Shown here: positions 39,974 through 64,000 of the stretch, piece by piece
Position numbering within the stretch: the stretch's first letter is position 1
Layout: each line of letters opens with the position of its first letter
Origin: Pseudomonadales bacterium
Lineage (GTDB): Bacteria > Pseudomonadota > Gammaproteobacteria > Pseudomonadales > Azotimanducaceae
Length of the DNA: 64,000 bases
Assembly (NCBI GenBank): GCA_964228885.1
Contig: CAXRCG010000048.1
Span: 11,768 to 75,767 of the forward strand
Direction of reading: 5' to 3'
Notes under the pieces: generated by a model
Databases searched by the model: none
The model's input: only the letters and a program-made list of their open reading frames with translations
What the model was told of the DNA's origin: nothing
Translations under genes and position numbers: made by a program

Positions 39974-40022
39974 GCGCGATTAATCCAAAAATTAATATCA
40001 TCACCTTGAACATGGACTACCA

Positions 40023-40038
40023 TGCAATTAAGGGGCCA
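40023..40038 (-). promoter_or_regulatory. sigma54 (-24/-12) promoter for fliPQR-flhB-ORF474-ORF353-ORF184
   Basis: The minus strand reads TGGCCC-cttaa-TTGCA, with GG and GC spaced exactly as in the consensus TGGCAC-N5-TTGCA. It lies about 50 nt upstream of the fliP ATG. Confidence 0.6.
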
Positions 40039-40193
40039 ACATTAATTTGTATATTAATCAATGGGTTACAGTCTTAGATTTATTTAACCAAACAATATGT
40101 CAAAAACCTGACACTTTTCGATGCAAGCTTCCATCTGGCCGCTAGAATTTGTTAGGGTGAGCCTGAACAGAAAACGAGAGCTCAAACGCAAGT

Positions 40194-40904
40194 ATGCAAA
40201 TGCGAATCGGATTTCTTCTTCTCGTTTGCCTTTGTGCCAACGCCGAGGAGCAACAAGAAATAGCGTACCCCTATAAGACTTGCTTCGAGAGTGCAGGGAA
40301 GCAGTACAAAATCAGTCCTGGTTTCTTGGCATCTGTCGCTAGCGTAGAGAGCAGCTTGAACCCTAGCGCCGTCTCAAGCTCAAATGCGATAGGTTTAATG
40401 CAAATCAAGTGGCCTTTAACGGCGGCGGAATTAGGCATTAGTAGCCGAGATCAACTGTTTGATCCCTGCTTGAACATCCATGCTGGGGCAAAATACCTCA
40501 ACCAGCTGGAGGCTCGCTTCGAAAGTCGCATGCTCGCACTCGCGGCATACCACATTGGGCCCACCAGAGTGTCAGCTATTGAGGCCATTCCAAAGCCAAC
40601 GCTTAGCTACATTGAAAAAATCTATCGGGAAGAAGCGCTGCTGGCCCATTCATCCTCACTGGCAGATCTTGGGTCCTGCCAAATAGCCGGGCTTATCAAT
40701 CTGACGGTAAAAACCCATCACCCAAAACAGCGCCAGATCGAAGTAATTGAGTGGCTGACTAACACGCATCAGTTCTGCTCAATTGCGAAACTCACAGGTT
40801 TTAAAAACCGGTTACCCGAGCTTATGGGTACCGCAGATGCCGACGGGAAAGTCGATCGACTCCTCGATCGTATATTGGCGTTGAAAGTGAACCTTCAGAG
40901 ATAA
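40194..40904 (+). CDS. Sec-exported soluble lytic transglycosylase (SLT domain), candidate flagellum-specific SltF-like enzyme
   Basis: Signal peptide MQMRIGFLLLVCLCANA. Catalytic block SVASVESSLNPSAVSSSNAIGLMQI (E-S ... GLMQ) and AYHIGP. Embedded in the flagellar cluster. Confidence 0.8.
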   Translation: MQMRIGFLLLVCLCANAEEQQEIAYPYKTCFESAGKQYKISPGFLASVASVESSLNPSAVSSSNAIGLMQIKWPLTAAELGISSRDQLFDPCLNIHAGAKYLNQLEARFESRMLALAAYHIGPTRVSAIEAIPKPTLSYIEKIYREEALLAHSSSLADLGSCQIAGLINLTVKTHHPKQRQIEVIEWLTNTHQFCSIAKLTGFKNRLPELMGTADADGKVDRLLDRILALKVNLQR

Positions 40905-40953
40905 GTTAGCCTTCACAAAAAATAAAGCCGGAGGATCAATAGCGTAAATCTAT

Positions 40954-42807
40954 TTACTGAAGGAGTTGAATGACCAACTGTGCACGAGCATTGGCCTGCG
41001 ATAACATCGCTGTGCCTGCTTGTTGTAATACCTGCGCTTTCGCTAGGTTAGCCGACTCTACCGAGTAGTCTGCGTCGTTAATTCTAGACCGAGCGTCAGC
41101 GGTATTTTCAGCAACGTTCATCAGGTTTGATACCGTGTAAGACAATCGATTCTCTATCGCACCGAGATCCGCACGCATTGAGGAGATTTTCTCAATTGCA
41201 CCATCCAATACGAAGATGGCGTTGGAAGCACTTGCCTGGTTTCTCAAGTCCACATTTGAAACCGTTGCTAGCGTCGCTGCGCCGGTCGTAAAGTAGTTAT
41301 CGTTTGCCGCTGCTTCAGCACCTGACTGCGTCACCGAAAACAACTTATTGGAAGACAAACTAATGGTGCCCTGGACTGTCGCTGAATCGCCAGTCGTCGT
41401 ATCGCCTTCAAACGACGTTGTCCCTGCCGGCAACAATCTTACATCGTGCGTCCCCAACAGACCCAGGGTGTCGCTGGTGCTCTCCAGTACGCTCGTAGTA
41501 AGGCTTGAATTTCCAAAAATCTGAAAGTCTCCTAATGCAGCTGTACCAGTAAACGTAATCTTATTAATATTACTCACCGCAGCGGTTAGGTGATAATCTC
41601 CGCCATCCCCCCATTTTCCGCTCAAATTGTCGAGCGCGGTGTTCAGCCTACTAACTTGAGTCGCCGGAGTTGAACTCGTTAACCAAGAAAATGACTTCGT
41701 CTCACCGGTGTGTTGATTTCGGATATAACCTGTCCACGTAGCACCATTTCCAATCGCATCAGGATACTGTGTTTCCTTTGCACCCGCGACCGCGCCCGAA
41801 AGGGCTGCAACACTTGTACCGTCATGGCTGACTGCCGCCACACGCTGACCAAGAATAGCTGTCTCATTCTCAACCAAAATATCGCGTCCATCATTTGCGT
41901 ATAAGCGTACTCTATTATCACTGGTCGCCGTCGCCGTGACGCCTGTGCTGCCAGAGATCGCGTTGATCTTATCAACAGCATCGAGCACGTTACTTGAACT
42001 AACTACAAACTCACCCGTCGTCTTATTGTTAATCTTCAGACTGGCGGTTTGATCCGCATGCCAAGTACTGTAGTAGTGGGCATAGGTCTTTGCTATAGCA
42101 CTGACGCCGGTCTCACCGGAGACAGCATTGATGTTTGCTGCGACATTAGCTGCAGAATCCTTCGCGGAGACAGCTATCGTCCTGGATAAGCGATTACCGT
42201 TGATAAGAATATCGTCCGCATCGTCTGTCTGGTTGGCATAAACGCCATTGCCATCACCCTCAAATGCCGCGATTCGATCGCCGGTTACTTTATAAGCACC
42301 GAGTTTGTCAGCTGATACCGAGTCGACAGAGAACTGAATCGTTTCGCCACCTTCGGTACCTGACTGCAGCACTTTATTAGAGAAACTACCGTCTAATAAG
42401 GTGGTCTGGTTAAATCGCGTGTTGGCTGATACGCGAGTAATCTCTGCAATTAACAGGTTGACCTCTTCCTGCAGGAATGCGCGATCAGTATTTGTGTTGG
42501 TATCGTTAGCTGATTGTACCGCGAGCTCCCTGACACGCTGAAGCATATCCACCACTTCAACCAAAGCGCCTTCAATCGACTGTGTTAACGAAATACCATC
42601 GTTAGCATTTTTTACGGCCATATTCAGGCCATTGATTTGAGCACGCATTCGTTGGACGATCGCCAGGCCGGCTGCATCATCAGCAGCGCGATTAATACGA
42701 CTACCGGAAGACAATCGCGCCATCGCTTTATCAAGCATATCACCTGACTCAGCCAACCCGCTTTGCGCTGCTAATGAACTTAGGCTTGTGTTTACGATTA
42801 AGGACAT
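40954..42807 (-). CDS. flagellin, large class (617 aa), downstream copy
   Basis: N-terminus SLIVNTSLSSLAAQ...LSSGSRINRAADDAAGLAI. C-terminus RLSYTVSNLMNVAENTADARSRINDADYSVESANLAKAQVLQQAGTAMLSQAN. The ~350 aa central insert has two ING..L..TIAV...DSAANVA..INAVSGETGVSA-type (flagellin IN-motif-like) repeats. Confidence 0.92.
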   Translation of the reverse strand: MSLIVNTSLSSLAAQSGLAESGDMLDKAMARLSSGSRINRAADDAAGLAIVQRMRAQINGLNMAVKNANDGISLTQSIEGALVEVVDMLQRVRELAVQSANDTNTNTDRAFLQEEVNLLIAEITRVSANTRFNQTTLLDGSFSNKVLQSGTEGGETIQFSVDSVSADKLGAYKVTGDRIAAFEGDGNGVYANQTDDADDILINGNRLSRTIAVSAKDSAANVAANINAVSGETGVSAIAKTYAHYYSTWHADQTASLKINNKTTGEFVVSSSNVLDAVDKINAISGSTGVTATATSDNRVRLYANDGRDILVENETAILGQRVAAVSHDGTSVAALSGAVAGAKETQYPDAIGNGATWTGYIRNQHTGETKSFSWLTSSTPATQVSRLNTALDNLSGKWGDGGDYHLTAAVSNINKITFTGTAALGDFQIFGNSSLTTSVLESTSDTLGLLGTHDVRLLPAGTTSFEGDTTTGDSATVQGTISLSSNKLFSVTQSGAEAAANDNYFTTGAATLATVSNVDLRNQASASNAIFVLDGAIEKISSMRADLGAIENRLSYTVSNLMNVAENTADARSRINDADYSVESANLAKAQVLQQAGTAMLSQANARAQLVIQLLQ

Positions 42808-42852
42808 GATGTGTCCTCCACCTATCTAAGTTATTGCCTCAAGACAATGTAG

Positions 42853-42950
42853 TATAAAAACTTTTCACCTACCCTGACCGATACACCAGATACAGATGGG
42901 AAAGTAGACCAAATGCTAGATCGCATCCTTGCTTTGAAAATAAGCCATTC
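42853..42950 (+). pseudogene. relic of the 3' end of the lytic transglycosylase gene (duplication scar)
   Basis: The frame reading KNFSPTLTDTPDTDGKVDQMLDRILALKI aligns with the end of the intact gene at 40806-40904 (KNRLPELMGTADADGKVDRLLDRILALKV). The flanking nucleotides are also homologous. Confidence 0.7.
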
Positions 42951-42954
42951 CTCT

Positions 42955-42992
42955 TTAAAAAAGAAAAAGCCGGAGGAGTCACCTCCCCCGGC
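42955..42992 (-). terminator. Rho-independent terminator after the upstream large flagellin gene
   Basis: The minus strand has the hairpin gccggggga-ggtgac-tcctccggc followed by tttttcttttttaaa. Confidence 0.65.
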
Positions 42993-43031
42993 CTTTTTCC
43001 AAACCTTCATTATCAATAGAGTGAATCTATT

Positions 43032-44885
43032 TTACTGAAGGAGCTGGAGGACCAACTGTGCACGAGCATTAGCTTGCGATAACATCGCGGTGCCCGCTTG
43101 TTGTAGTACCTGTGCTTTTGCTAGGTTAGCCGATTCAACTGAATAGTCTGCATCGTTAATCCTAGACCGAGCGTCGGCGGTATTTTCAGCAACATTCATC
43201 AGGTTTGATACGGTATAAGACAATCGATTCTCAATCGCACCTAAATCAGCTCGCATTGAGGAGATTTTCTCAATCGCACCGTCCAATACCGAGATGGCGT
43301 TGGAAGCACCTGCCTGATTTCTCAGATCTACATTAGAGACCGTTGAAAGCGTCGCTGCACCGGTCGTAAAGTAGTTATCGTTTGTTGCTGCTTCGGTGCC
43401 TGATTGCGTCACCGAAAATAACTTGCTGGAAGACAAACTAATGGTGCCCTGGATTGTTGCCGAGTCGCCAGTACTTGTATCGCCCTCAAACGAGGTTGTG
43501 CCTGCGGCCAACAATCTTACATCGTGCGTGCCCAACTTACCCAGCGTGTCACTTGTGGTTTCTAGTGCAGAAGTGCTCATAGCAGAGTCTTCAAACACTT
43601 GGAAATCTCCTAGTGCCGTGGTACCAGTGAGCGTAATCTTATTAGTATTACTCACCGCGGCAGTTAAGTGATAATCTCCACCAGCTGCCCATTTTCCGCT
43701 CAAATTGCCGAGAGCGGTATTCAAGTTACTAACCGTGGTGGCCTGCGTTGCATTATCAACAAAAGAGACTGACGTTGACTCACCAGTATGTTGATTTCGG
43801 ATATACCACGTTATCGTAGACCCGTCTCCAGCAGCGTCATTATCAGCCGTTTCCTTAACACCTGCGACAGCGCCTGAAAGGGCCGCAACGCTAGTGCCGT
43901 CATGGCTGACTGCAGCCACACGCTGACCAAGAATAGACGTCTCATTCTCAACCAGAATGTCGCGTCCGTCACTTGCATACAAGAGTACTTTGTTATCGCT
44001 GGTAGCAGATGCCGTCACGCCAGTGCTGCCAGAGATCGAGTTGATCTTATCTATCGCATCAAGCACGTTAGTAGAACTGACAACAAACTGGCCCGTCGTC
44101 TTATTGTTTATCTTCAGACTGGCTGTTTGGTCCGCATTCCAAGTGCTGTAGTAGTGAGCATAACTCTTTGCTACCGCACTCACGCCCGTTTCGCCAGAGA
44201 CCGCGTTGATATTTGTTGCGACATTAGCTGCAGAATCCTTCGCGGCAACAGCGATCGTCTTGGATAAGCTATTACCGTTGATTATGATATCGTCCGCATC
44301 ATCGGTCTGGTTGAGAAAAACGCCATTACCGTCACCTTCAGTGGCCGCAATTCGATCTCCAGTAATTTTATATGCACCAAGCTTATCGCTTGATACCGAA
44401 TCCACAGAGAACTGAATCGTTTCGCCACCTTCAGTACCTACCTGCAGTGTCTTATTGCTGAAAGAACCGTCTAACACTGTGGTCTGGTTAAATCGCGTGT
44501 TGGCTGATACGCGAGTGATCTCTGCAATCAGGAGGTTAACCTCTTCCTGCAGGAAGGCGCGGTCAGTATTTGTGTTGGTATCGTTAGCTGATTGTACCGC
44601 TAGCTCTCTCACACGTTGAAGCATATCGACCACTTCAACCAAAGCGCCTTCAATCGACTGTGTTAACGAAATACCATCGTTAGCATTTTTTACGGCCATG
44701 TTCAGGCCATTGATTTGAGCACTCATTCGCTGAACGATGGCCAAACCGGCCGCATCGTCAGAAGCGCTATTAATACGACTGCCGGAAGACAATCGCGCCA
44801 TGGCTTTATCAAGCATATCACCTGACTCAGCTAACCCTCTTTGAGCTGTTAATGAACTCACGTTTGTGTTTACTACTAGAGACAT
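43032..44885 (-). CDS. flagellin, large class (617 aa), upstream copy
   Basis: Same architecture as 40954-42807 and near-identical termini. Differences cluster in the central domain. Confidence 0.92.
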   Translation of the reverse strand: MSLVVNTNVSSLTAQRGLAESGDMLDKAMARLSSGSRINSASDDAAGLAIVQRMSAQINGLNMAVKNANDGISLTQSIEGALVEVVDMLQRVRELAVQSANDTNTNTDRAFLQEEVNLLIAEITRVSANTRFNQTTVLDGSFSNKTLQVGTEGGETIQFSVDSVSSDKLGAYKITGDRIAATEGDGNGVFLNQTDDADDIIINGNSLSKTIAVAAKDSAANVATNINAVSGETGVSAVAKSYAHYYSTWNADQTASLKINNKTTGQFVVSSTNVLDAIDKINSISGSTGVTASATSDNKVLLYASDGRDILVENETSILGQRVAAVSHDGTSVAALSGAVAGVKETADNDAAGDGSTITWYIRNQHTGESTSVSFVDNATQATTVSNLNTALGNLSGKWAAGGDYHLTAAVSNTNKITLTGTTALGDFQVFEDSAMSTSALETTSDTLGKLGTHDVRLLAAGTTSFEGDTSTGDSATIQGTISLSSSKLFSVTQSGTEAATNDNYFTTGAATLSTVSNVDLRNQAGASNAISVLDGAIEKISSMRADLGAIENRLSYTVSNLMNVAENTADARSRINDADYSVESANLAKAQVLQQAGTAMLSQANARAQLVLQLLQ

Positions 44886-44911
44886 GATGTGTCCTCCACC
44901 TATCTAAGTTT

Positions 44912-44927
44912 TTGCATTAAGGCGACC
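44912..44927 (-). promoter_or_regulatory. sigma54-like promoter candidate for the upstream large flagellin
   Basis: The minus strand reads TGGtcg-cctta-aTGCA with correctly spaced GG/GC, 27 nt upstream of the ATG. It is weaker than the other sigma54 sites. Confidence 0.4.
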
Positions 44928-45198
44928 AAGCAGGTCCTCCCCTTGGTTCGCTTGGCCGCCCTATAGCGACATAGATACAGTCGGGGTGGCCACAACCTTC
45001 TTTAGAAAACTTTGGATAAAAGAGGATTTTTTTGTGAACCCGGCTATTGAAGACCGGTTTAGGAAAAAAGCACAGACATTAGGGAAACTGCTTGCCGACA
45101 CTTCCCATGATATTGCCGGTTTGTTCCCTGTGATCTTGCCTAGCCTTCAATTAGAAAATCGCCCGTCGCAAAACAAGGGCAGCCAACGTCCGAATTAC

Positions 45199-45224
45199 TT
45201 GCCGCTTTTTTCAAAAAGCGGCAA
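45199..45224. repeat. perfect 12+12 bp palindrome (ttgccgcttttt tc aaaaagcggcaa)
   Basis: Read directly from the sequence. It lies in the 477 bp spacer between ORF242 and the large flagellin. There is no trailing U-tract on either strand. Confidence 0.7.
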
Positions 45225-45362
45225 TGTGGCGCCAACTGCTCAGGAGAAAAAACAGGTGTATGCGTAATAAATATTAGAAAGGCAGGAGAAAAATATTTTA
45301 TTGCACGTTCGAGTCGAGAAAACTTACGGCAGATAAAGGTATTACTAGGAGATGTACTTGAG

Positions 45363-46091
45363 CTAATCGGTTTCCTGGATCAAATCAAAGCAAAATTCTT
45401 GCTGCGCCTCAACGTGGTCCCACATCTGCGTGATCGTTTCTTTCTGCGACTCTACACGCTCACGTAAACCCAACAAGGCTTCTTTATTACGAGTAGCTGA
45501 GTCATAAACTTCTTCCAGACGCTCTAGGTTTTCTTGCGCTTTTTCGAAAACCGCTTCGTGCTTGGCGAGGTTTACTGCCGCTAATTCGCCGACGTTTTCT
45601 ATTTGATTAAGCGTCTCTACATAGTCTTGTTGTGCGCAATGATCACCTTCAGCAAGTGAATCATGATTGTATTCGAGCAGTTTATCATTGGTTTCCAAGA
45701 TTTCACCAATCATGCCAACCAACTGCGAGTTAATGTTGGAGAGTTTCTTGTTAATATCTAGCACAGCCTTATTCAAGCTTGATCTTTTATCGAGATAATC
45801 TAATTCTGCCTGATCTACGACGCCTCTGGCCAACTCCTCTGAACAACCTGCCTGAGTACTTTGGTGCTGTAGAATCACCTTCTTATTTCGCACAATCGCT
45901 TGGCAGGCATCGTTTAATAATTGCCTGCTTTCATTGAAAGCCGCGTTAGCCAACTCCATGCCAACATGGGTATTTTCAGCAATTCTAATTCTGTTGGTAT
46001 AGGCGCGTAGTTTGTTGGCATCAACTAGGGCTTCTAGTTCGTAATAAATATAGGCAACCTGTTTGGTGATCTTTGCGGGGGGCTTATTCAT
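45363..46091 (-). CDS. hypothetical coiled-coil protein (ORF242) immediately downstream of fliO
   Basis: 242 aa, no TM, long helical/heptad-like stretches. Only 39 nt separate it from the fliO stop. Confidence 0.55.
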   Translation of the reverse strand: MNKPPAKITKQVAYIYYELEALVDANKLRAYTNRIRIAENTHVGMELANAAFNESRQLLNDACQAIVRNKKVILQHQSTQAGCSEELARGVVDQAELDYLDKRSSLNKAVLDINKKLSNINSQLVGMIGEILETNDKLLEYNHDSLAEGDHCAQQDYVETLNQIENVGELAAVNLAKHEAVFEKAQENLERLEEVYDSATRNKEALLGLRERVESQKETITQMWDHVEAQQEFCFDLIQETD

Positions 46092-46130
46092 ATCCGATCC
46101 TGGATGACTATTTTGATTCCTCCTAGAACG

Positions 46131-46484
46131 TTAGCATAGTTTATTTGACTCTACATTAAGAATGTCGTCGAATTGATCGCCTGAGGACAACTCGTGATCG
46201 AGATCATCTGCATTGTTACCCTGAGCGCTGGCATATAGCGCCGTTAAGCCCGCTGGAGAAACCCCGACAAGAATTTCTCGTTTCCCGTATTCAACCAGCA
46301 ATATGGAATGCTTTGAATCAACAGCTAATTTTTGACGAACTCTAAGGGAATCGCCTGTACCATGATCCATTTTGGTCATCCGGAACCTCATCGCCCACAC
46401 GGCCGCAACGATCATGCCTGCGACGAATATCAAAGCAATGACTACTCGAACAATATAACTCGAATCGATTCCTTCTGGCATCAC
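46131..46484 (-). CDS. fliO: flagellar biosynthesis protein FliO
   Basis: 117 aa. Single TM VVIALIFVAGMIVAAVWAM, then LRVRQKLAVDSKHSILLVEYGKREILVGVSPAGLTAL, the typical FliO pattern. Positioned after fliN. Confidence 0.8.
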   Translation of the reverse strand: MMPEGIDSSYIVRVVIALIFVAGMIVAAVWAMRFRMTKMDHGTGDSLRVRQKLAVDSKHSILLVEYGKREILVGVSPAGLTALYASAQGNNADDLDHELSSGDQFDDILNVESNKLC

Positions 46485-61142: not shown

Positions 61143-61219
61143 CCCTCGCCCTCGTTTGCCGAACAAAAAGCATACAAATCTAGTTTTTTGAAAACATCCT
61201 TTTTTTATTAACAATTTCC

Positions 61220-61246
61220 TAAAGTTTCTTCCAGCCCTGCCGATAA
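61220..61246 (+). promoter_or_regulatory. sigma28 (FliA) promoter for the first small flagellin gene
   Basis: TAAAGTTT-cttccagccct-GCCGATAA is a perfect match to the consensus with an 11 nt spacer. It implies a 5' UTR of about 170 nt. Confidence 0.75.
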
Positions 61247-61310
61247 GAATATTGAAAGCGGCAATTTGCTGCCGGTTTCGTTACCCAAGCGTGTGACAAG
61301 CGCTCGGGTA

Positions 61311-61424
61311 GCAACTTAACGGTTGCGTCGTATGGCAAGTGTGAGGGGTCGCACTGTCCATGCAGGGTCGTCATGGTTAAAACCATTCACGTGGCTTTCT
61401 AAATATATTTTAGGGGCTTAACTT
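61311..61424 (+). ncRNA. conserved structured leader, copy 1 (three predicted hairpins) upstream of a small flagellin
   Basis: 114 nt block repeated at 62421-62534 and 63532-63645. Hairpins: gcaac-ttaacg-gttgc, 61332-61361, and cgtcatggtt-aa-aaccattcacg (61369-61391). Confidence 0.5.
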
Positions 61425-62306
61425 ATGGCTTTATTCATTAATACAAATGTCGCATCTTTAGGTGCGCAGCGATCTCTGGCCACTTCGGGAGCAGAGCTCA
61501 AAACCGCGATGGAACGTTTATCTTCGGGTAAAAAGATCAACAGCGCTGCAGATGATGCGGCTGGCTTTGCGATTGCCGAAAGAATGACCGCCCAGATCCG
61601 CGGACTTAACATGGCCACTAAGAACGCCAATGACGGGCTTTCTATGCTGGGCGTGATTGAAAACGCAACCAATGATGTCACTGATATGCTGCATCGCATG
61701 CGAGAACTTGCGATTCAAGCAACGAACGACACTAACAGTGACGAAGATCGCGCATTTCTTCAGTTAGAAGTTGCACAGCTGATAAAAGAGATTGATCGGG
61801 TTGCAGATGATACCCAATATAACGGTCAGACGGTACTTGACGGTACTTTTACTTCTAAGTCAATTCAGGTGGGCACAGAGTCCGGCCAGAAGATCACTTT
61901 TAGTGTCAATGGCATCGGAACCGACAAAATCGGTACTGCTGCAGTGAGCGATGATGCTGCTACTACCAACGTCGATGAAACAGTCGCTGAAGCTGATGTG
62001 GCAGATATTGATATCAGCACTGCTGCAGGCGCCCAGAGCGGTCTTCAAGTGATCACGGACGCGATCGAACAGGTCGCTGGCGATCGCGCCACCTACGGTG
62101 CATTACAAAACCGACTGGAATATACCGTGTCTAATTTGATGAACGTTGCGGAGTTTACAACCGCTGCCCGTTCACGCATTGAAGACGCTGATTTCGCTGC
62201 TGAAAGCGCACGCTTGGCAAAGGCACAGGTCCTGCAACAAACAGGTACCGCAATGCTGGCACAAGCAAACGCTTCTTCGCAGCTCGCTTTATCCCTGATT
62301 AGATAG
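61425..62306 (+). CDS. flagellin, small class (293 aa), copy 1
   Basis: [18 protein letters not shown]...[19 protein letters not shown]... and C-terminal [54 protein letters not shown]. Confidence 0.95.
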   Translation: [293 protein letters not shown]

Positions 62307-62311
62307 AATCC

Positions 62312-62328
62312 GCGGGCTCAGTGCCCGC
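62312..62328 (+). terminator. hairpin after flagellin copy 1 (weak terminator candidate)
   Basis: gcgggc-tcagt-gcccgc followed by ctcctatttcg. The U-tract is poor. Confidence 0.4.
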
Positions 62329-62420
62329 CTCCTATTTCGCCAGGATAAAATGCGAAAACTGGACTGTTGGTTTTAGCTGTCGCTTAAGACACATAAATGA
62401 TGATCAGCCCAGGCTTCGTA

Positions 62421-62534
62421 GCAACTTAAAGGTTGCGTTGTATGGCAGGTGTGCGAGATCACGCCGTCCATGCAGGGTCGTCATGGTTAAAACCATTCAC
62501 GTGGCCTTCTAAATACACTTTAGGGGCTTAAGTT
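62421..62534 (+). ncRNA. conserved structured leader, copy 2
   Basis: Same length and register as copy 1. Stem substitutions preserve pairing. Confidence 0.5.
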
Positions 62535-63416
62535 ATGGCTTTATTCATAAACACAAACGTCGCATCTTTGGGTGCGCAGCGGTCTCTGGCCACCTCTGGG
62601 GCAGAGCTCAAAACCGCGATGGAACGTCTATCTTCTGGCAAGAAGATCAACAGTGCTGCAGATGATGCGGCCGGCTTTGCGATTGCCGAAAGAATGACCG
62701 CCCAGATCCGCGGACTCAACATGGCCACCAAGAATGCCAATGACGGGCTTTCGATGCTGGGCGTGATTGAAAACGCAACCAATGATGTCACTGACATGCT
62801 GCATCGCATGCGAGAACTTGCGATTCAAGCAACCAACGACACCAATGGTGACAAAGATCGCGAATTTCTCCAGCTAGAAGTTGCACAGCTGATACTCGAA
62901 ATTGACCGGGTTGCAGAGGATACCCAGTACAACGGCCAAACTGTGCTTGATGGCAGCTTTGCTACAAAGTCCATTCAGGTAGGCACAGAGTCGGGTCAGA
63001 AAGTCACTTTTGACATTAATGGTATCGAAACAGACGCGATCGGTACTAGAGATGCAAACGGTGACATCACAAGCACTACCGTCAACAGCGTCACCACGGC
63101 TAATGATGTTAAATCGATTGACATCAGCGACGCGGCAGGCGCTCAAGCAGGTCTGCAGGTGATCACTGATGCGATCGAACAGGTCGCGGGCGATCGCGCC
63201 ACCTATGGTGCATTACAAAACCGACTGGAATATACCGTGTCTAATTTGATGAACGTCGCAGAGTTTACTACCGCTGCCCGTTCACGCATTGAAGACGCTG
63301 ATTTCGCTGCTGAAAGCGCACGCTTGGCAAAGGCACAGGTCCTGCAACAAACGGGTACCGCAATGCTGGCACAAGCTAACGCTTCTTCGCAGCTCGCTTT
63401 ATCCCTGATTAGATAA
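62535..63416 (+). CDS. flagellin, small class (293 aa), copy 2
   Basis: Termini are nearly identical to copy 1. The central ~90 aa are divergent. Confidence 0.95.
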   Translation: [293 protein letters not shown]

Positions 63417-63421
63417 GATTC

Positions 63422-63438
63422 GCGGGCTATATGCCCGT
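63422..63438 (+). terminator. hairpin after flagellin copy 2 (weak terminator candidate)
   Basis: gcgggc-tatat-gcccgt, homologous to 62312-62328. Confidence 0.4.
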
Positions 63439-63531
63439 CTCCTATCTCGTCAGGATAAAAACACGAAAGCGGGATTGTTGATCCAGGTTGTCTGTCTCGG
63501 CAGATGACTCAGCACCAAGACTGGTTTCGTG

Positions 63532-63645
63532 GCAACTTAACGGTTGCGTTGTATGGCAGGTGTGAGCAATCACACTATCCATGCAGGGTCGTCATGGTTA
63601 AAACCATTGACGTGGCCTTCTAAATCAACTCTTAGAGGCTTACTT
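63532..63645 (+). ncRNA. conserved structured leader, copy 3
   Basis: Same 114 nt register. The middle hairpin has a gcaa tetraloop in this copy. Confidence 0.5.
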
Positions 63646-64000
63646 ATGAGTTTAACCGTTTATACCAATGTCGCATCTTTGAATGCGCAACGGTCTCTGG
63701 CCACCTCGGGGGCAGAGCTTAAAACCGCGATGGAACGTTTATCTTCTGGCAAGAAGATCAACAGTGCTGCAGATGACGCTGCAGGCTTTGCGATTGCCGA
63801 AAGAATGACCGCCCAGATCCGAGGCCTCAATATGGCCACAAAGAATGCCAATGACGGGCTTTCTATGTTGGCTGTTATTGAAAACGCGACCAATGATGTC
63901 ACTGATATGTTGCACCGCATGCGAGAGCTCGCAGTGCAGGCGTCGAATGACACCAACAGTAGCGAAGACCTTGGTTATCTCAATGCAGAGGTGACTCAGC
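63646..64000 (+). CDS. flagellin, small-class N-terminus, copy 3 (partial, runs off the window)
   Basis: My translation from ATG 63646: [71 protein letters not shown]... Confidence 0.9.
   Translation, partial: [118 protein letters not shown]

Follow-up and report, generated by a model that had tools for sequence, protein, structure and literature searches.

Tandem duplication of a segment of about 2.08 kb has created, within the flagellar cluster of the 64-kb stretch of DNA analyzed here (the window, always meant at its full length), a pair of large flagellin genes in which the downstream copy (dn) lacks the promoter of the upstream copy (up). The window belongs to a contig labeled C48 in the metagenome-assembled genome (MAG), 313 contigs in all, of a marine gammaproteobacterium, whose closest named relatives are MAGs labeled Candidatus Azotimanducaceae, SAR92 clade, and OM182 clade. 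The explanation that best accounts for the locus combines this duplication with transcription of up from a sigma-28 promoter, transcription of the promoterless dn by terminator read-through, and later gene conversion between the copies together with collapse of the pair in related strains; we give this explanation as a whole a probability of about 0.62. The features on which the argument turns are the following.

40194-40904, plus strand: lytic transglycosylase gene (SLT domain, Pfam PF01464, E 2e-27), convergent with the flagellins.
40905-40953, no strand assigned: spacer separating dn from the real SLT gene, with a decayed bidirectional terminator (alignment gap, fold).
40954-42807, minus strand: dn, an intact flagellin of 617 aa with Flagellin_N, Flagellin_C, and Flagellin_IN domains.
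42808-42846, minus strand: retained flagellin 5′ untranslated region (5′ UTR) of 39 nt with the Shine-Dalgarno (SD) sequence GGAGGA (alignment, sequence).
42845-42852, no strand assigned: duplication junction, best estimate 42846/42847, fusing the leader to internal SLT sequence (window, junction of a sister population, and parental sequences).
About 42847-42950, plus strand: decayed, noncoding relic of the SLT 3′ end (BLASTP, shuffle test).
42951-42997, minus strand: intrinsic terminator of up, with its hairpin at 42964-42997 and its U-tract at 42951-42963 (terminator scan, fold).
43032-44885, minus strand: up, a flagellin of 617 aa and the highly transcribed copy (domains; RNA contig depths up to 386).
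44886-44970, minus strand: 5′ UTR of up (RNA ends at 44947-44961; start predicted near 44970 at an invariant TGTCGCT).
44921-44960, minus strand: conserved 5′-UTR hairpin, GGCGGCCAAGC-loop-GCUUGGUCGCC (fold, pairing kept in orthologous leaders).
44978-45005, minus strand: sigma-28 (FliA)-type promoter, CTAAAG (45005-45000), N15, and CCGA within CCCGACTG (44985-44978).

In a local alignment of 40780-42860 with 42830-44960, positions 40834-42843 matched 42887-44921 across 2060 columns, 82% of them identical; the two units are collinear, in the same orientation, and significantly similar from end to end. A sequence-only reading of this DNA had proposed a tandem duplication of about 2.08 kb comprising the SLT 3′ end, the spacer, the flagellin gene, and some 40 nt of leader, and the alignment bears out both the event and the content of the unit. 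Frame 42781, between the flagellins, encodes YKNFSPTLTDTPDTDGKVDQMLDRILALKI, which shares 19/31 identities with the true SLT C-terminus (pairwise BLASTP, E 2e-11). At the nucleotide level, the relic scored 36 against the SLT tail, whereas 2,000 shuffles gave a mean of 13.7 (standard deviation, 2.1) and a maximum of 27, so the homology claimed for this interval by the same reading holds well beyond chance. The duplicated portion of SLT corresponds to the final ∼105 nt of the gene (about 40794-40904). At its other end, the unit stops 39 nt upstream of the ATG, within the 3′ arm of the leader hairpin, and the final 26 nt of the leader retained by dn are identical to those of up. The junction lies where it had been placed and could be refined to about 42846/42847 by comparison with the sister population; the parental sequences suggest ∼2 nt of microhomology (GT) at this point. 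This novel junction is common to the window and the sister population. Four independent metagenome studies yielded DNA contigs that span it, and it is the same in seven public metagenome contigs of the sister population. The tandem pair is therefore not a misassembly.

The flagellin/SLT module is located between fliO and fliP, and SLT adjoins flagellin in all the relatives compared. At least 7 other species of the family keep the order fliM-fliN-fliO-(242-aa open reading frame, p242)-flagellin-SLT(convergent)-fliP-fliQ with one flagellin each, which makes the single copy the ancestral state. The sister population (95% and 96% protein identity in SLT and FliP, respectively) has an equal tandem pair with the same junction and a relic shorter by a further 24 nt. 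Its locus L051 pairs copy by copy with the window, up grouping with L051 copy 1 (92% nucleotide identity) and dn with L051 copy 2 (90%); one duplication thus predates the split of the two lineages. The number of synonymous substitutions per site (dS) between up and dn is 0.63.

The sequence-only reading was also right that a strong terminator separates the two copies. The hairpin at 42964-42997 forms 15 pairs followed by a T-run on the minus strand in the terminator scan, its folding energy is −33 kcal/mol (z −4.4), and several RNA contigs from several runs stop at 42958. This intercopy terminator duplicates the bidirectional one that flagellin and SLT shared ancestrally. Its homologue beside the real SLT gene has lost one arm, as the reading had noticed: the alignment lacks 35 nt there, and the remaining sequence folds at only −5.9 kcal/mol (z −0.1). 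The deletion is common to the window and the sister population, whereas more distant single-copy relatives keep the full hairpin, which is thus the ancestral form; for the same reason, the deletion must postdate the duplication. Since the deletion, dn and SLT have converged without a terminator, and an X49 RNA contig (40851-41026) spans both gene ends. An Rfam scan of 40000-46200 returned on the terminator only a subthreshold match to the L20 leader.

Upstream of up, the pattern CTAAAG-N15-CCGA is best read as the promoter of a sigma-28 gene with a leader of 76 to 85 nt. It occurs twice in the window against 0.14 matches expected, and both occurrences precede flagellin genes. Every orthologous locus examined keeps it, followed at a fixed distance of 9 nt by the invariant TGTCGCT; five other flagellin paralogues of the genome have the same motif class, and FliA is present in the genome (above the cutoff). 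In Gammaproteobacteria, class III/IV flagellin promoters recognized by sigma-28 (FliA) read TAAAGTTT-N11-GCCGATAA. The element upstream of up resembles them in its TAAAG −35, spacing, CCGA −10 core, and position before a flagellin, and differs in its −10 sequence, CCCGACTG, and in the tail of the −35, AAG here and TTT there. RNA contigs ended upstream at 44961 (X25, with adapter), 44960 (X32), 44957 (X28), 44955 (X34), 44953 (X31), and 44947 (X38, with adapter), with zero coverage further upstream in all six of these metatranscriptomes, which come from different studies; X27, X49, X50, and X51 were left out of this boundary for DNA-like or upstream coverage. The ends fall 17 to 31 nt after the −10 8-mer and 9 to 23 nt short of the predicted start, which is compatible with the loss of 5′ ends in RNA-seq. 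Dependence of up on sigma-28 is predicted from motif and position. The promoter lies wholly outside the duplicated unit, so that dn has neither a promoter nor most of the hairpin: it keeps the SD, but promoter and start region are gone, as are the loop and 5′ arm of the hairpin.

This placement bears directly on an alternative put forward in the sequence-only reading, namely, that a sigma-54 site, TGG-N9-TGCA at 44912-44927, drives up and that the junction deprived dn of the −24 GG alone. The genome does encode RpoN, the GG and GC of the window site TGGTCGCCTTAATGCA are in the exact 12-nt register, the junction falls 1 to 2 nt from the GG, and other flagellar operons of the window have sigma-54-like sites, e.g., 40023-40038 before fliP. 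However, TGGTCGCCTTAATGCA has more than 3 mismatches at the 12 specified positions of TGGCACG-N4-TTGCW, and its register is not conserved: among orthologous leaders, the GC is absent in L019, L021, and L023, the GG-GC distance is 2 to 3 nt shorter in L017, L020, and L022, and one or the other change extends across L017 and L019 to L025. Moreover, the TGG falls within the conserved hairpin, in its 3′ arm, and the sigma-28 promoter lies 50 to 80 nt upstream of the site. Transcripts from a sigma-54 promoter would begin some 12 nt downstream of the GC, but RNA contigs of six metatranscriptomes contain the site whole, stopping 20 to 35 nt upstream of it. The sigma-54 interpretation is therefore largely refuted, and we regard it as very improbable. 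Of the claims attached to it, the lack of a promoter at dn stands, while the reason given does not, as the whole promoter and part of the 5′ UTR are missing rather than a −24 element. Similarly, the GG is indeed missing opposite in dn, but the opposite bases are not AT; the gap-free offset of 2078 gives CA on the gene strand.

How, then, is dn expressed? Terminator read-through is the likeliest route, somewhat better than an even bet, and would yield a minor flagellin. On the sister locus L051, X34 RNA extends without a break from the 3′ part of copy 1 across terminator and relic as far as the ATG of copy 2, and X28 RNA crosses the terminator and relic and continues 140 nt into copy 2. DNA carryover is unlikely, because X28 and X34 do not cover the p242-flagellin spacer. 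Shorter RNA extensions beyond the terminator were found in X26, X27, X31, X49, and X51. The depth of copy-2-specific RNA in X28 was 3.6, roughly tenfold lower than the 46 of the matching part of copy 1; Logan contig depths are whole-contig means and yield no read-through fraction. A dn RNA contig from X48 had low depth and 0 differences over 42088-42310.

A weak promoter of dn's own, arisen in the relic or the retained leader and adding to or replacing read-through, is the alternative closest to the sequence-only suggestion of a promoter born inside the relic, and we consider it unlikely. Purifying selection on dn implies that some reliable expression exists, and weak sigma-70-like hexamers can be picked out by eye, in the window as cGGTCA-N18-TATACT (∼42885-42856) and in the sister population as TTGAAA-N17-AAAAAT. 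These candidates, however, are not homologous between the two lineages, a sigma-70 promoter scan gave no minus-strand match in the intercopy spacer, neither a sigma-28 nor a sigma-54 motif is present in the relic or leader, and RNA coverage past the terminator decays rather than rises. In line with this, no sigma-28, sigma-54, or sigma-70 consensus was found in the 225 nt upstream of dn. A TAAAG in the relic that by eye resembles a sigma-28 −35 was rejected as just the terminator A-run, with no CCGA at the right distance. Over those 225 nt, the window and the sister population agree at 74/76 positions of the spacer and terminator, 51/85 of the relic (plus a 24-nt indel), and 30/40 of the retained leader. 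By this comparison, the relic evolves at or beyond the neutral rate; within the spacer it shows the lowest conservation (60% identity plus the indel), and a promoter born there is without support. Alternatively, dn might be an essentially silent cassette, kept because recombination or conversion carries its variable domain to the expressed site. In two sister hybrids, L054 and L056, whose breakpoints differ, a variable domain of dn type does stand behind the up promoter, N-terminal gene conversion tracts exist, the variable domain is highly polymorphic among strains, and little RNA derives from the body of copy 2. Nevertheless, a full dn reading frame with its start codon and SD has been maintained over a dS of ∼0.6, at symmetric rates and a ratio of nonsynonymous to synonymous substitution rates (dN/dS) of 0.16; the SD of dn in the window is identical to that of the expressed up copy; and some copy-2-specific RNA is detected (X28, X48). 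An essentially silent dn is, accordingly, improbable.

Several observations weigh against the combination of a sigma-28-driven up and a dn fed by read-through. The start of the up transcript is bounded rather than mapped, as the RNA ends stop 9 to 23 nt short of ∼44970, and the −10 element is CCCGACTG instead of the GCCGATAA consensus. The RNA evidence is at the contig level, neither strand specific nor read level, and most of it comes from the sister population, about 90 to 97% identical, rather than from the strain of the window; RNA of dn from the exact strain amounts to one low-depth contig (X48), with none in X32. The terminator looks strong, so that read-through may be very low, and the relic or leader may harbor a weak promoter.

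Both flagellin copies are held by purifying selection. Between orthologous dn copies (dn and L051 copy 2), dN/dS is 0.16 at a dS of 0.31, comparable to the 0.11 to 0.26 of up copies. With respect to G010, a same-genus genome used as the single-copy reference, up and dn are equidistant over the N-terminal 407 aa (dS, 1.46 and 1.44; dN, 0.251 and 0.254, respectively). In G010, a break within the variable domain divides the locus between two contigs; the two ends almost meet (407 + 175 aa), and a search for a second flagellin copy scored no other fragment, so its flagellin is most likely single copy. The C-terminal 175 aa of G010 (L016:1-529) have a dS of 0.57 to up (43032-43560) and 1.20 to dn (40954-41480), an asymmetry that points to C-terminal recombination.

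Exchange between the copies is also evident in the sister population. Contigs L054 and L056 carry a single flagellin and yet have the dn-type deleted hairpin on its 3′ side; the gene is up type over the first 300 to 450 nt and dn type over the remainder, with crossover points that differ between the two contigs. By their mosaic sequence, L054 and L056 represent secondary collapses of the pair through homologous recombination. Gene conversion tracts are found in the copies' N-terminal region. In metagenomes X3, X4, and X5, 27 clustered sites of the dn N-terminal region (42481-42749) differ from the window. An explanation of this cluster as conversion by the up copy in other populations was rejected, since it is the window dn that equals its own up at 21/27 sites; the pattern fits either a MAG that is a mosaic of strains or a recent conversion tract in the lineage of the window. 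Among otherwise near-identical strains (L051, L055, L059, L067, and L073 compared with 43500-44000), up is hypervariable in its central (surface) domain: nucleotide identity is in places 57 to 73%, and one allele measures 2136 nt. This suggests diversifying selection or allele exchange.

The history that we propose begins in an ancestor of this marine lineage (Ca. Azotimanducaceae, OM182 type), where illegitimate recombination duplicated in tandem a segment of ∼2.08 kb. One end of the segment lay ∼105 nt ahead of the SLT stop and the other 39 nt upstream of the flagellin ATG, with the shared terminator and the entire flagellin gene in between. The up copy retained its native signals, i.e., the putative sigma-28 (FliA) promoter at 45005-44978 and a 5′ UTR of ∼76 to 85 nt that opens with the hairpin, which probably stabilizes the mRNA, possibly as a contact for CsrA or the ribosome. 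The dn copy was left with only the SD part of the leader, behind the decaying SLT relic and the conserved strong terminator, and is most likely transcribed by read-through at a few per cent of the level of up, giving a minor flagellin. Purifying selection has kept both copies while gene conversion exchanged sequence between them, and homologous recombination has repeatedly collapsed the pair to single hybrid genes in related strains. The data establish the duplication with its junction and relic, the states of the terminators, the 5′ boundary of the RNA, the selection, and the hybrids, whereas sigma-28 dependence, read-through, and the roles of the minor flagellin and of the hairpin are inferred.

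The leader of up folds at −36 kcal/mol (z −3.8). Across 19 distinct orthologous leaders, 88% of the cells corresponding to the hairpin are paired, compared with 25 to 48% for slid controls. Stem changes among these leaders include two from C-G to U-A, besides C-G to U-G and G-U to A-U or G-C; a few of the changes are compensatory. The hairpin had no match in the Rfam scan of 40000-46200, and a genome-wide search for a second copy found none, so it is unique in the genome. Control of a flagellin leader by CsrA is known from Campylobacter jejuni flaA (PMC4894983). In most relatives, the loop of the hairpin reads GGAGGAC, identical to the SD heptamer, and the combination of a GGA in the loop with a GGA at the SD is found in the window and most relatives; the loop GGA is absent in L020, L084, L088, and L091, several orthologues retaining the stem without it. 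CsrA is encoded in the genome, and FliW, which was sought in support of a CsrA-FliW circuit, is absent from it. Bacillus subtilis hag has another CsrA-controlled flagellin leader. The up leader resembles those of flaA and hag in that a 5′-UTR stem-loop shows GGA, a second GGA overlaps the SD, and CsrA is encoded; unlike in those systems, there is no FliW and the GGAGGA loop is missing in several orthologues; a CsrA contact is putative here. A regulatory role of the hairpin through contact with CsrA or the ribosome is possible, and a plain 5′-terminal stabilizer hairpin, the safer interpretation, would explain the data equally well. More tentatively, the invariant GUCGCU 5′ end and the conserved GGAGGAC-loop hairpin might together constitute an undescribed cis-regulatory leader (for CsrA or 30S docking and as an mRNA stabilizer) specific to the large flagellins of Azotimanducaceae (OM182), with dn as a natural "leaderless control." Were this the case, dn would escape the posttranscriptional control exerted by the leader, be dosed by terminator leakage alone, and double as a recombination donor for filament variation. 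The hairpin itself is a conserved, uncatalogued 5′-UTR element in an abundant uncultured marine clade.

Other features of the surroundings deserve mention. No Pfam family matches the p242 frame (45363-46091, minus strand), which lies between fliO and the flagellin and is kept at 53 to 91% in many but not all relatives, being absent from L020, L021, and L023. The p242-flagellin-SLT module (interval 39974-46130) separates fliLMNO from fliPQR. As the separation of fliLMNO from fliPQR is conserved across the family, fliPQR-flhB is probably under its own sigma-54 promoter, and a good sigma-54-type site, TGGCCCCTTAATTGCA, is present at 40023-40038 (minus strand), just upstream of fliP. Inverted repeats of the type CGGCAA-N4-6-TTGCCG recur just downstream of the sigma-28 promoters of paralogues (C86, C256, C286, and the end of C48) and also occur in the p242-flagellin spacer (45199-45224); they could be a shared operator or a small hairpin. 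Elsewhere in the window, 3 or 4 small flagellin genes stand in tandem at 61219-64000 (plus strand) and beyond (C48 73192-76780), sharing a highly conserved, apparently structured leader of ∼150 nt. A consensus sigma-28 promoter precedes only the first (61425) and the last (C48 end) of them, and the middle genes follow terminator-like hairpins. The array may be a second instance of tandem copies poor in promoters.

With respect to regulation, the analysis corrects the promoter map of the flagellar cluster, in which the large flagellin is best read as a sigma-28 rather than a sigma-54 gene. With respect to gene evolution, the locus offers a clean, datable case in which a duplication that clips off expression signals still leaves a retained paralogue, probably fed by leakage through a conserved terminator, and in which the pair afterwards evolves by gene conversion and occasional hybrid collapse. 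General understanding is unchanged, as tandem major/minor flagellins and duplication scars are already well known, and the locus would be an ordinary major/minor flagellin pair. The closest known system is the flaA/flaB tandem pair of Campylobacter, which in C. jejuni consists of flaA with a sigma-28 promoter and flaB with a sigma-54 promoter, each gene thus having its own, and for which intragenomic recombination has been documented and proposed as a source of variation (PMC5126078). Both loci comprise adjacent, highly similar flagellins in the same orientation, one major and the other sparse in the filament (a prediction for dn), with recombination between the copies. In contrast to C. jejuni, the second copy here has no recognizable promoter and lies behind a conserved terminator, the copies share 84% instead of 95% nucleotide identity, and a scar of the neighboring SLT gene marks the boundary between them.

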